Source of the DNA: a virus
Lineage: Duplodnaviria; Caudoviricetes
Virus record (IMG/VR): IMGVR_UViG_3300031953_000001
Length of the DNA: 64,000 nt
Strand: one strand, 5' to 3'
Position 1 is the first letter of the stretch; the number at the start of each line of letters is the position of its first letter. Positions 32,709 through 37,250 of the stretch are shown piece by piece. A model generated the notes under the pieces. It was given only the letters and a program-made list of their open reading frames with translations. It ran no database searches and was not told the DNA's origin. The position numbers and the translations under genes were made by a program.

Positions 32709-33260
32709 ATGCACACACCCCCAAGAACCCCGCTCACCAACCCCGATGCGATTCACACCGAACTGACCGACCATTTACGTCAGTCATTAGGTGAGAGCCG
32801 ATTGGCGAATATCTGCCACCACCGTGAGCAGTGTCGTAGAGACATGATAGGCTTTTGTCAGGAATACTCAGGCGATGATCGGAAGTTGATGTTCGCGTTG
32901 GGTAAACTGTGGCTGTCTTTGCTGGATCACACCTTGTGGAACATAGACAACCGCAGTAACTTGTACTTCGCTCCCGATCTGAGGCTGTACGATCTGAACA
33001 TCGTGGGCTTGTGTTACGAGTGGCACGATTTTGCCGACTTTGCCCATATCGCTGATAAGTTGCCTGGGTATTCTGAATGGGCACAGAAGATTGAAAGCGA
33101 TGAGTACGTCTCTATGCACTTCATTTTCCGCACTCGCCCTAGCAGTCCCGACTTGCTGTTGCGGCCGACGTCGGCTGAGTTTTTCTCTCTTGAGAGCATT
33201 CATTTACTTGCACCCCATATCACTCAAACCCAAGTAGGATACCCCCATGAAACAATATAA
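32709..33260 (+). CDS. hypothetical protein
   Basis: ATG 32709 follows the previous stop; overlaps the thyA start. Confidence 0.55.
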
Positions 33261-34431
33261 AGACTTATTAAACACCATCGTAGCCGGCGGCAGCACCCGC
33301 ACCGACCGCACAGGCACTGGCACCGTCAGTATTTTTGGGCATTCGATGCGGTTTGATCTGAACCAAGGCTTTCCGCTGGTGACCTTGAAGTTCACGCCAA
33401 TGCATTTGATTGTCAAGGAACTGCTCTGGTTCTTGGAAGGCAACACCAACGCTCACGACCTGACCGAGCAAGGCTGTCACATCTGGGACGAGTGGGCCAC
33501 TGAGAACGGAGATCTGGGACCTATTTACGGTAAGCAGTGGCGCAGTTGGTCTGCACCTGACCTGACGAACATTCGTGCTAAGATCGATCGCATCGAAGCG
33601 ACATTAGACGACACGACGATGTCCGGTGGCGAGGCGGACTTCAATGCAGAACAAGTCAGCGAGATGCGTCAATTGCTGTTGGAGATTCGTGAGCACGACA
33701 GTACGCGAACCATCGATCAAATTCGTGACGTCATCCAGATGATTAAAGACAAGCCTCACAGCCGCCGTCTGATCGTGTCTGCTTGGAACCCGACCGATAT
33801 GCCAGACGAATCCCTATCCCCTCAAGAGAACGTCTCTGAGGGCCGCATGGCGTTGGCTGCGTGTCACACCCTGTTTCAGTTCTACGTCAGTGATATGACC
33901 GATGAAGAACAGCACAATTGGTTCTGTCGGCAAGAAAGCAAAACCTACTGGGAACTGCATCAGTTGGCCCGCATCCACCCAGACGCCGTTAACGACGTCC
34001 CAGAAGCGCATCGGGTGGTCTGGAAGAACGTAGGTGCTGACATTTGGTATTACAAAGGTGCCTATGAGGTCTTCAACGCGTACGCTCGCCAGCACGCGCC
34101 AAAGGGCAAATTGTCTTGTCAGCTCTACCAAAGATCATGTGATTCATTTTTGGGTGTCCCGTTCAATATCGCCTCCTATGCGCTACTGACACACATGATC
34201 GCTCAGGTCTGTGATCTGGCGGTGGGCGATTTTGTGTGGACCGGTGGGGATGTGCATTTGTATCTAAATGCAATAGAGCAAACCAAAGAACTGGTTTCAC
34301 GGGAACCTAAGAAACTGCCAACGTTAAAACTCAATCCGGCCATTAAAGACATAGATGCGTTCACACTGGACGACATCGAACTGGTGGGGTACGAGTCGCA
34401 CCCAGCCATTAAGGTCAAAGTGTCTGTATAG
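33247..34431 (+). CDS. thyA: thymidylate synthase with two large insertions
   Basis: [39 protein letters not shown] (catalytic Cys), [24 protein letters not shown]. Confidence 0.95.
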
Positions 34432-34458: not shown

Positions 34459-34743
34459 GTGACTGACAAACCGTTTGAGACGACCCCAGATGGATATCAA
34501 AAGGCCAAAGAGTGGTTATCTGAACACAATCTATCACACAAGATCGAGGGCGAGCAGTCTGCCGATGGGTTCACGCTTGTCGCCTTAGCCAACCATTTAA
34601 GGCTGGTTCTACGGTACGAGCGTCGAAAGTACGAAAACTTCCGAGCAAGCTCTCGCCTCGAGGGAATTGAGTTGTCTGCATCGCAGTCGACTGAGTCGCT
34701 GGCAGACGTTATCGCCAGACACAAGACCCCACCCACGACATAA
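34459..34743 (+). CDS. hypothetical protein
   Basis: 94 aa, GTG start after GAAGGGA. Confidence 0.55.
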   Translation: MTDKPFETTPDGYQKAKEWLSEHNLSHKIEGEQSADGFTLVALANHLRLVLRYERRKYENFRASSRLEGIELSASQSTESLADVIARHKTPPTT

Positions 34744-35737: not shown

Positions 35738-36019
35738 ATGCCAAGATACACATTTAGAACTGAAGGTCCTTTCGTCGGCGAGAAAGAACGCGTTGAAACG
35801 TTGGTTCAAGAACTGGGGTTATCCATCGTTAAACATTGGGTGGAGTACGATAGACGAGATTGGGCGTTGGATTTCTTTACCGTTGAAACTGAAATCGATG
35901 ACGTTGAGGTCCTTCGTGCTAAGATGACCGAACTGATCCTTAACGACCCTCGGTTTGAAGATCTGCATCGGTGTGAACAAACCCTTAATCCCGGAGATGC
36001 GGTTAAAGACCCATTTTAG
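35738..36019 (+). CDS. hypothetical protein, paralog of 36912-37250
   Basis: YTFRTEGP...FTVETE...DLHRCEQTLNPG. Confidence 0.7.
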   Translation: MPRYTFRTEGPFVGEKERVETLVQELGLSIVKHWVEYDRRDWALDFFTVETEIDDVEVLRAKMTELILNDPRFEDLHRCEQTLNPGDAVKDPF

Positions 36020-36033
36020 ACAACGTCCAAGTA

Positions 36034-36873
36034 ATGGAGAATATCACTATGGTTAGATCAACACCTGCACTTACCGACGAACAGAAAATCGACGATTTGT
36101 GGTACGACTTAAATATCCTCGGATTTAAAGACATGCGACGTTGCTGCATTAGAGACTTGGCCGCTCTACGTGGATCTATCGAAGCTGTGATCACCACAAC
36201 GGAAGTCCAACTTATACTGATGGACGGCGTTGGTAAGAAGACGATGCGAGAAATTAAAGATCTGGTAACCAGCGTTAGATTCCGCCAAAACATCCTCGAC
36301 GCCAAACTTCAGGGGGTGTTGAGGACCTCGGTGTCGGACAAATTCATCCAGAAAGCGATTAACGAAAGGCGTGGTATGAGCGAACGCAAGCGGCAGGCGT
36401 TAGGCATCACGGCAAGTCCCAGGTCGATGGTGGATGCGATCATGCTTCGTAAAGACATCTACGAAAAGCACGGTATGCCGGATTATAAGACGATCGGTTC
36501 AGCCGGCATTGATCTGCGCGCCTGCATTGATGAATCCATCGTGTTGGCCCCAGGCGAGGTCAAAATGATCGGCTCTGGGTTAAAGATCCACGTTCAAGAC
36601 CCTAACTATGCGGCTATCCTCCTGCCTCGCTCAGGACTGGGTGCCAAGCACGGCATTGTACTGGGCAACCTGGTGGGTCTGATTGACTCGGACTATCAAG
36701 GTGAGATGGGCATGTCGATCTGGAACCGCAGCGATAAGGAGTACTTGATCGAGCCTGGAGACCGCATTGCTCAACTGGTGGTCATCAAGGTCGAGCAAAT
36801 CGTATTAAGTTGGGTGGATAAGTTTGAATCCACTGAGCGCGGTTCCGCTGGGTTTGGCTCTACTGGGGTTTAA
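36034..36873 (+). CDS. dut: trimeric dUTPase with an N-terminal RNAP alpha-CTD-like extension
   Basis: Motifs GSAGIDL, PRSGLG, GLIDSDYQGE, RIAQLV, RGSAGFGSTG; about 130 aa N-terminal extension. Confidence 0.9.
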   Translation: MENITMVRSTPALTDEQKIDDLWYDLNILGFKDMRRCCIRDLAALRGSIEAVITTTEVQLILMDGVGKKTMREIKDLVTSVRFRQNILDAKLQGVLRTSVSDKFIQKAINERRGMSERKRQALGITASPRSMVDAIMLRKDIYEKHGMPDYKTIGSAGIDLRACIDESIVLAPGEVKMIGSGLKIHVQDPNYAAILLPRSGLGAKHGIVLGNLVGLIDSDYQGEMGMSIWNRSDKEYLIEPGDRIAQLVVIKVEQIVLSWVDKFESTERGSAGFGSTGV

Positions 36874-36911: not shown

Positions 36912-37250
36912 GGAGTAAGCATGTTCGTATATACGTTTTGTACCGAAGGGCCCGGCGACGGTCCTAGGGCTGAGAAGTTAATCCACGCGTTGAACCTAAA
37001 GACGGTGAACCACTGGCAGGTGGAGAACCCGATGGGGTACTTTTTGAGTGTCTTTACAGTGGAGACCGACGCGCTTCTCGAAGACCTGCGTGATCGAATG
37101 GCCGCTTTGATCCTTAGAGACACAGCCGCATGTCTGGCAGGGGAAGATTACAGACTCCTACCTTTTGTCGATCTCCATCAGTGCGCCCAGACGTTAAACC
37201 GCGGTATAAAACCCAAATGGCCTTACGACGACCCTGCGAGTGAGGATTAA
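36912..37250 (+). CDS. hypothetical protein, paralog of 35738-36019
   Basis: YTFCTEGP...FTVETD...DLHQCAQTLNRG; GGAG RBS before GTA-AGC-ATG, likely start ATG 36921. Confidence 0.65.
   Translation, partial: GVSMFVYTFCTEGPGDGPRAEKLIHALNLKTVNHWQVENPMGYFLSVFTVETDALLEDLRDRMAALILRDTAACLAGEDYRLLPFVDLHQCAQTLNRGIKPKWPYDDPASED

Follow-up and report, generated by a model that had tools for sequence, protein, structure and literature searches.

The gene described here lies in a 64,000-nucleotide stretch of DNA (hereafter the window) from a virus of the Caudoviricetes, IMG/VR record IMGVR_UViG_3300031953_000001, and encodes a dUTPase that is preceded, in the same reading frame, by a domain of the helix-hairpin-helix (HhH) type. 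The N-terminal domain (N-domain) and the dUTPase are held by one uninterrupted open reading frame (ORF) at 36034-36873 (+), which counts 279 amino acids (aa) from its first ATG. Residue numbers below refer to this 279-aa translation unless the 274-aa or the model numbering is stated. The original prediction, made from the letters of the window, had described the region 36085-36273 (+) as resembling the C-terminal domain of the RNA polymerase alpha subunit (alpha-CTD) fused to a dUTPase. On translating the window we obtained the same letters as the peptide quoted there, KIDDL...KDLVTS, which corresponds to residues 18-80 and lies inside this single ORF. The features of the locus are as follows.

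36049..36873 (+): most likely the complete coding sequence of the (HhH)2-dUTPase fusion, 274 aa, stop codon included (from the ORF list and the start context)
36034 (+): alternative upstream ATG, which would yield 279 aa
36037..36040 (+): Shine-Dalgarno-like GGAG for the start at 36049, read in the sequence, with TAGGAG equally spaced in relatives
36079..36270 (+): predicted (HhH)2 core, residues 16-79, made of HhH 1, a connector helix and HhH 2 with its invariant G65-x-G67 hairpin (from the AlphaFold 2 (AF2) model, profiles and invariant columns)
36271..36381 (+): predicted conserved helical extension of the N-domain, residues 80-116, with a basic helix at its end (from the AF2 model and the structural match to LigA)
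36382..36429 (+): hypervariable linker, residues 117-132, 16 aa (from the family alignment and the ratio of non-synonymous to synonymous divergence, dN/dS)
36430..36870 (+): predicted trimeric dUTPase domain, residues 133-279 (from Pfam PF00692, NCBIfam NF001862, motifs and the homotrimer prediction)

The true start is most likely the second in-frame ATG, at 36049, giving a protein of 274 aa. This start is favoured because a GGAG lies 8 nucleotides upstream of it, because four relatives of the protein begin at the equivalent Met (MVKK...) with TAGGAG at matching spacing in the loci examined, and because the gene callers of public assemblies also picked the 274-aa form. At its other end the protein reads GFGSTGV and has no C-terminal Trp 'capsid tag'.

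Judged by its sequence, the C-terminal half is an ordinary, catalytically intact dUTPase that is predicted to form a homotrimer. It matches Pfam PF00692 over residues 148-278 (E 4.5e-33, 114.2 bits against a cut-off of 22), the NCBIfam Dut equivalog NF001862 over residues 135-278 (179.5 bits, cut-off 103) and the dUTPase group PHROG 135 (E 1.3e-54). The five dUTPase family motifs are all present (SAGIDL, PRSGLG, GLIDSDYQG, RIAQ and RGSAGFGSTG), among them motif III with its catalytic Asp and motif V, which is P-loop-like and C-terminal, and the motif residues are kept in all five fusions of the family presented below. The prediction run with three copies of the chain scored 0.93 as a homotrimer against 0.00 for the best control, with a contact agreement of at least 74% and a predicted local distance difference test (pLDDT) value of at least 81; among solved homomers 20 of 30 reach this mark, and among single chains 1 of 23. 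Since solved dUTPase trimers are plentiful, the pass may derive from these structures and stands for likeness, not for an independent discovery. The trimer interface and the confident contacts fall within residues 125-262 (274-aa numbering), that is, in the enzyme domain alone, and none is confident for the N-domain.

The association of an HhH-type domain with this dUTPase was borne out by the uninterrupted ORF, by the Pfam and NCBIfam matches of the enzyme half and by the (HhH)2 profile and fold of the other half. An artefact of assembly or gene calling, by which two separate genes would have been joined, is refuted by the contigs, the runs and the relatives, and its probability is next to nil. 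Indeed, the reading frame is unbroken, and the identical 274-aa protein was called on 13 contigs from three sources (ENA, JGI and Logan), the stretch being present in runs from 15 studies of brine and aquatic metagenomes. The domain junction is bridged or covered by contigs of four runs, with zero variants at the junction. One of these contigs, which comes from an RNA library, spans the entire gene, and it counts as one more independent assembly only, as it cannot show transcription, strand or ends.

The same fusion also occurs in four diverged relatives, P0003, P0006, P0007 and P0008 (275-301 aa), which share the two-domain architecture and are 54-59% identical overall. After profile word searches, the family comprises five fusions in total, namely the phage's own protein (P0001) and these four relatives, plus one stand-alone form (P0004). 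Searched exhaustively with phmmer, 1.84 billion representatives yielded two true relatives; another protein from that search, P0005, was discarded as a spurious repeat protein. No additional relative came from pattern scans of contigs in IMG/VR and the JGI metagenomes. The 29-kb contig L014, which carries P0007, shows the same gene order as the phage (Tmk-ThyA-...-Dut-...-SNase-like), and the other genes common to both are 42-69% identical. The stand-alone relative P0004 consists of the N-domain only, with 145 aa, and is encoded at L012:1270-1707 (+) on a 2-kb Logan contig. Its C-terminus is weakly DUF1289-like (E 0.0075). We also considered P0004 as a split form of the fusion and rejected it, the next gene not being a dUTPase.

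What kind of domain precedes the enzyme was addressed by sequence profiles and by structure. Taken alone, the N-domain of P0001 gave zero Pfam or PHROG matches. Its phmmer matches to PDB sequences were weak (E 0.008 for Hef and E 0.14 for alpha-CTD), and its weak NCBIfam matches are to LigA and Hef, in their HhH regions. The family profile and the structure alignment were built from six sequences, the five fusions and P0004. Searched against the PDB and compared with Pfam, this family gave the following matches.

Hef (HhH)2, profile against PDB: E 4e-8
T. filiformis LigA, profile against PDB: E 5.5e-6 over 81 columns
XPF, profile against PDB: E 6.7e-5
T. thermophilus alpha-CTD, profile against PDB: E 1.6e-3
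E. coli alpha-CTD, profile against PDB: E 0.02
Pfam HHH_2: five of the six family members, all below the cut-off
Pfam HHH_5: five of the six, all below the cut-off
Pfam RNA_pol_A_CTD: four of the six, all below the cut-off

For HHH_2 (PF12826), P0001 itself gave no match and the relatives reached up to 23.5 bits against a gathering cut-off of 27. The profile was also aligned by hhalign with proteins of the E. coli K-12 genome record, LigA being represented by its segment 430-600. The alignment with LigA scored 92.5% over 75 gap-free columns, covering both HhH motifs and the following helix, and that with alpha-CTD scored 85.8% over 38 columns, covering the second HhH only.

The AF2 model obtained from the six-sequence alignment (pLDDT 80) shows a five-helix (HhH)2 layout (helices 11-24, 31-41, 44-48, 52-56 and 63-74 in model numbering) followed by two further helices that form the extension (76-87 and 97-117, same numbering). 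When the model was compared by VIA-align with 48,161 PDB representatives, with no Foldseek prefilter, the top match was E. coli LigA (4glx, Z 8.9), of which 80 residues (506-585) align with residues 15-94 of the model at a root-mean-square deviation (rmsd) of 2.1 A; the runners-up had Z 6.3 and lower. Rescoring the Foldseek list with VIA-align gave a similar ranking, with three LigA entries at Z 8.8-9.1 (2owo, 9.1), DisA at Z 6.8, XPF/ERCC1 at 5.3-5.9, NusA at 5.3, and the alpha-CTD chains 8re4_A, 6n4c_A and 2max at 3.2, 2.8 and 2.8 with rmsd of 4.2-4.4 A. Foldseek itself returned nothing at E <= 0.001 against the PDB or against BFVD, so that the likeness to LigA is clear only with VIA-align. 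In LigA, Pfam places HHH_2 at 510-573 and BRCT at 596-668; the match thus corresponds to the last (HhH)2 unit and the helix toward the BRCT domain. The first helix of the N-domain extension corresponds to this helix between HHH_2 and BRCT, and the match ends at LigA residue 585. The ESM Atlas provides an independent model of the protein, whose structural neighbours over residues 10-109 are LigA and viral HhH-BRCT clusters. In addition, a tblastn search with residues 1-120 of P0003 against 50,697 phage records produced a single match, at E = 1, in the HhH region of a phage LigA. The second hairpin (G65-V-G67) is invariant in the family and keeps the canonical G-x-G-x-K. As judged from these profiles and models, the N-domain belongs with the (HhH)2 modules of LigA, Hef and XPF, and alpha-CTD is a real but remoter member of the same superfamily.

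The two halves differ in charge and in the way they diverge. The N-domain is basic in five of the five fusions (isoelectric point (pI) 9.3-10.1, net charge +4 to +8), whereas the enzyme half has an acidic pI of ~5. The helical extension of the N-domain carries a net charge of +3 to +4 in the fusions, and its terminal basic helix reads RKRK in the relatives. The linker measures 15-31 aa across the fusions and is not conserved in sequence, with a dN/dS of ~1 in most computable pairs among the relatives. The N-domain is under purifying selection among the four relatives, with dN/dS values of 0.04-0.14 between P0003, P0006, P0007 and P0008 at synonymous distances near saturation. Comparison of positions 36049-36870 of the window with the loci L013, L014, L022 and L023 also showed that every pairing of the five fusions has 74-86% identity in the dUTPase half, by which they are roughly equidistant, and that the N-domain of the phage is ~35% identical to those of the relatives, which are 80-86% identical to one another. 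In several pairs, the proportion of synonymous differences (pS) of the N-domain (0.43-0.44) is well under the value for the enzyme half (0.71-0.76). Module exchange or recombination may have given the two halves different histories, or the module may have become adapted to a partner specific to the lineage.

The phage itself bears on what such a fusion could do. The source record, an IMG/VR contig of 222,493 bp, carries direct repeats at its termini, and the capsid protein encoded on it shares 30-38% identity with the capsid proteins of phiKZ-like phages that infect Xanthomonas, Erwinia, Vibrio and Pseudomonas. As for the host, a habitat in brines hints at Marinobacter-like bacteria. Two further genes lie outside the window. 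One, at G000:C1:6391-8142 (-), codes for a protein homologous to gp54, the nuclear shell protein (chimallin) of phiKZ, with E 2.2e-37 over residues 15-612 of 626. The other, at G000:C1:17285-17710 (-), is a tubulin-family gene that passes the Pfam cut-off with 47.9 bits. By this gp54 homologue and the tubulin, the genome of this giant phage from brines carries the sequence markers of a nucleus-forming, phiKZ-like chimallivirus.

We lean, with moderate confidence, towards the fusion being a trivalent, sequence-non-specific DNA tether for the dUTPase, a role proposed from the homology of its N-domain. Tethering of the dUTPase to DNA had been the second alternative of the original prediction, and it is the one we favour, given a basic LigA/Hef-like module on a flexible linker. 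The HHH_2 module of LigA binds the DNA backbone with no sequence specificity. In the proposed mechanism, a basic (HhH)2 module of ~110 residues, added at the N-terminus of the dUTPase via the flexible hypervariable linker, would bind duplex DNA along its backbone irrespective of sequence, as do its homologues LigA, Hef and XPF. The trimer would bear three independently swinging, positively charged arms that hold the enzyme on (phage) DNA, an arrangement suggested by the charge, the linker, the selection on the N-domain and the lack of N-domain contacts in the predicted trimer. As a result, dUTP would be removed, and dUMP supplied, at the sites of DNA synthesis.

Several points weigh against such a tether. 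DNA binding is argued from homology, with the pI of 9.3-10.1 as its only indirect sign, and the structure model was built on only six sequences. The first hairpin is without its canonical glycines in five of the five fusions (KDMRR / TRFKR, with Arg/Lys instead), the glycine being kept in the stand-alone P0004 only, and this degenerate hairpin could weaken or alter the contact with DNA. P0004 is itself acidic, with a net charge of -1. Taken alone, P0001 pairs better locally with alpha-CTD (28.9 bits) than with LigA (21.2 bits). Moreover, (HhH)2 domains can also mediate contacts between proteins, as in XPF-ERCC1 and in NusA AR2 with alpha-CTD. Finally, nucleus-forming phages are reported to keep metabolic enzymes, e.g., thymidylate kinase, in the cytoplasm and off the phage DNA (PMC11087766); a DNA tether would therefore need nuclear import or another DNA target.

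The degenerate first hairpin would also fit a protein-docking module. In that case the (HhH)2 domain, instead of binding DNA, would attach the enzyme to one particular protein of the phage or the host, for example a component of the replisome, a complex for thymidylate synthesis or the machinery of nuclear import. The N-domains of P0003, P0006, P0007 and P0008, with 80-86% identity and dN/dS of 0.04-0.14, are constrained above what the fold alone would ask for, and the drop to ~35% identity between this clade and the phage, while the enzyme remains at 74-80%, fits co-evolution with a lineage-specific partner. The same fold makes protein contacts in XPF-ERCC1 and in NusA-AR2/alpha-CTD, and the structural neighbours at Z 5-6 include ERCC1/XPF, FANCM-FAAP24 and the NusA AR domains. 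Selective import into the phage nucleus (PMC11087766) would also provide a reason for a docking module. However, the partner is hypothetical, the nearest relatives in sequence and structure (LigA HHH_2 and Hef) bind DNA, the N-domain is basic in every fusion, and the second hairpin keeps the canonical G-x-G-x-K. We thus regard docking as possible but rather unlikely.

The other role put forward in the original prediction was that of a decoy, in which the N-domain would mimic alpha-CTD and, as a trimer, titrate host activators, NusA or UP elements. The local likeness on which it was based is real. In a pairwise BLASTP, P0001 and E. coli alpha-CTD share 17 identities over 52 positions (28.9 bits), the G-x-K-S/T of the DNA-binding hairpin of alpha-CTD is retained, four of the six family members match RNA_pol_A_CTD below threshold, and the hhalign score is 85.8%. 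In a register set by hand, the Arg/Lys found in the fusions at the second glycine of hairpin 1 would also fall on R265 of alpha-CTD. Nevertheless, the likeness is weak and confined to the second HhH and what lies downstream, with the first HhH left out of the 38 aligned columns. The N-domain scored 12.3 bits (E 0.15) against RNA_pol_A_CTD (PF03118), for which the cut-off is 23.8, and the best relative, at E 1.5e-3, was still below it; as controls, E. coli RpoA gave 85 bits and a 102-aa ORF of the phage itself 24.5 bits. The segment between the hairpins is 4 residues longer than that of alpha-CTD by manual count, yet gap-free against LigA, and the predicted fold is nearest to LigA (Z 9.1), with alpha-CTD chains at 2.8-3.2. 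The IDDL and TEVQL that recall alpha-CTD, at positions that we take to be the 261 and 287 determinants of E. coli alpha, are peculiar to P0001 and read IKTL/IKVL/ISRL and TDKQL/TDSQL/SDSEL in the relatives. Furthermore, it is a separate phage ORF, unrelated to the N-domain, that passes the alpha-CTD model. A specific alpha-CTD identity was thus not upheld by the profile, the structure or the conservation of these look-alikes, and we consider the decoy very improbable. More generally, a striking local identity to a famous domain, here alpha-CTD, is best checked across the whole superfamily before a decoy is proposed.

The ORF in question, P0009, is a stand-alone gene of 102 aa outside the window (G000:C1:124237-124368 (-); ORF L008:1432-1737 (-)). 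It passes RNA_pol_A_CTD with 24.1-24.5 bits against 23.8, carries a TRAVN motif where alpha has R265/N268, and resembles alpha-CTD more than the N-domain of the dUTPase does. We examined P0009 as a paralogue of this N-domain and rejected it (BLASTP E 2.3, hhalign 42%).

A second, shorter product would be compatible with any of these roles. Initiation at the Met of MVDAIML (36427), as the original prediction had suggested, would give a plain dUTPase of 148 aa. This Met stands where the canonical dUTPase domain begins: the match to the NCBIfam Dut equivalog starts at residue 135, and the relatives align from V133 on. However, the four relatives have Q, A, G or V in place of the Met, only an AGG, 3 nucleotides away, is found upstream of it, and no Shine-Dalgarno-like sequence precedes the equivalent codon in the loci examined, L013 (P0008) and L014/L015 (P0007). 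An internal start is thus not conserved, and its use in this phage seems doubtful.

dUTPases are usually free, soluble enzymes of the nucleotide pool, and fusions of a dUTPase to a nucleic-acid-binding domain are known mainly from betaretroviruses. A literature search on dUTPase with HhH or helix-hairpin-helix, jumbo phage or Chimalliviridae found such a fusion nowhere described. Among 50,697 deposited phage genomes, no relative of the N-domain was detected by megablast of the locus or by tblastn with P0001 1-135 or P0003 1-120, whereas dUTPase matches were present in 2,187 of them. For 39 phage records the alignment extends over at least 80% of the whole protein; we set these aside, as they appear to be long, gapped, low-identity alignments and not matches to the N-domain, and both such records listed are Arthrobacter-phage dUTPases with 25-29% identity. 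The fusion is a new domain architecture made from two well-known parts, whose function we infer.

A DNA-binding arm on a pool enzyme is a puzzle, since the enzyme could be imported and kept on phage DNA, could sit on host DNA, or could use the arm as a docking module. In a phage with a chimallin homologue and a tubulin, the fusion thus asks where, relative to the phage nucleus, the pool is cleared of dUTP. In nucleus-forming phages, DNA enzymes are reported to be imported into the phage nucleus, unlike metabolic enzymes (PMC11087766). We tentatively suggest, as an outcome that we hold to be rather unlikely, that this dUTPase is the first nucleotide-pool enzyme acting on the DNA side of the chimallin shell, imported or retained by DNA binding and clearing dUTP at the forks. 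If true, the remaining thymidylate pathway would be cytoplasmic while the dUTPase works in the phage nucleus. Alternatively, the HhH module would be a portable handle for nuclear import or retention.

The neighbourhood of the gene contains other enzymes of the same metabolism. The thymidylate synthase gene at 33247-34431 (+) encodes 394 aa and matches Pfam in two stretches, which suggests an insertion of ~100 aa; the thymidylate synthase of L014 is likewise built, with 385 aa and 69% identity. Between thyA and the dUTPase block, a 94-aa ORF at 34459-34743 (+) resembles Pfam YhfG in its C-terminal part (E 9.4e-9). Two small paralogous genes flank the dUTPase gene, at 35738-36019 (+) and 36921-37250 (+); their products, of 93 and 109 aa, are 41% identical (E 8e-19) and have no Pfam match, and counterparts are absent from the loci of the relatives. 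In the phage encoding P0008, a gene of the PF04447 dATP/dGTP pyrophosphohydrolase family (L013:1553-2698 (+)) lies two genes downstream of the HhH-dUTPase gene and represents a second nucleotide-pool enzyme of the same block.

Compared with known systems, the N-domain shares with HHH_2 of LigA (PF12826, E. coli 510-573 plus the pre-BRCT helix) the five-helix (HhH)2 layout and the next helix. It differs by an identity of ~20%, by the replacement of the first hairpin glycine by Arg/Lys in the fusions, and by the absence of any ligase, Zn-finger, OB or BRCT context; the phage genome has zero LigA-type HHH_2 matches. The archaeal nucleases Hef/XPF are the best sequence-profile matches, sharing an FGS-type connector and a G-I-G-x-K second hairpin. 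Unlike the module of the fusion, their (HhH)2 domains are C-terminal, dimerise and serve a nuclease, and their structural scores are Z 5.3-5.9. alpha-CTD (PF03118) belongs to the same superfamily as the N-domain and has local identity in the second HhH, including G-K-K-S/T, but its first HhH, with the hairpin that bears R265/N268, is left unaligned, and the fusion has no RNA polymerase context.

On the enzyme side, the dUTPases of the staphylococcal phages phi11 and 80alpha are likewise trimeric phage dUTPases with an extra, lineage-specific element. They moonlight by binding the Stl repressor, and they have an internal insertion (motif VI) and no N-terminal HhH. Staphylococcal phage Duts align to residues 130-279 only, with 28-30% identity. 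In retroviruses, the fusion of the nucleocapsid protein (NC) with the dUTPase is made by ribosomal frameshifting within a polyprotein. The NC-dUTPase (p30) of Mason-Pfizer monkey virus (M-PMV) and those of other betaretroviruses have the same design as the phage protein, in which a nucleic-acid-binding domain at the N-terminus is joined by a flexible linker to a dUTPase that forms homotrimers (PMC1802613). In the M-PMV homotrimer, the N-terminal domains adopt the symmetry of the trimer upon oligonucleotide binding (PMC1802613). The N-domain of NC-dUTPase is a zinc-knuckle NC while that of the phage is a predicted helical (HhH)2 module in which the CCHC pattern is absent, so that the betaretroviral protein is an analogue of the phage fusion and not its homologue.

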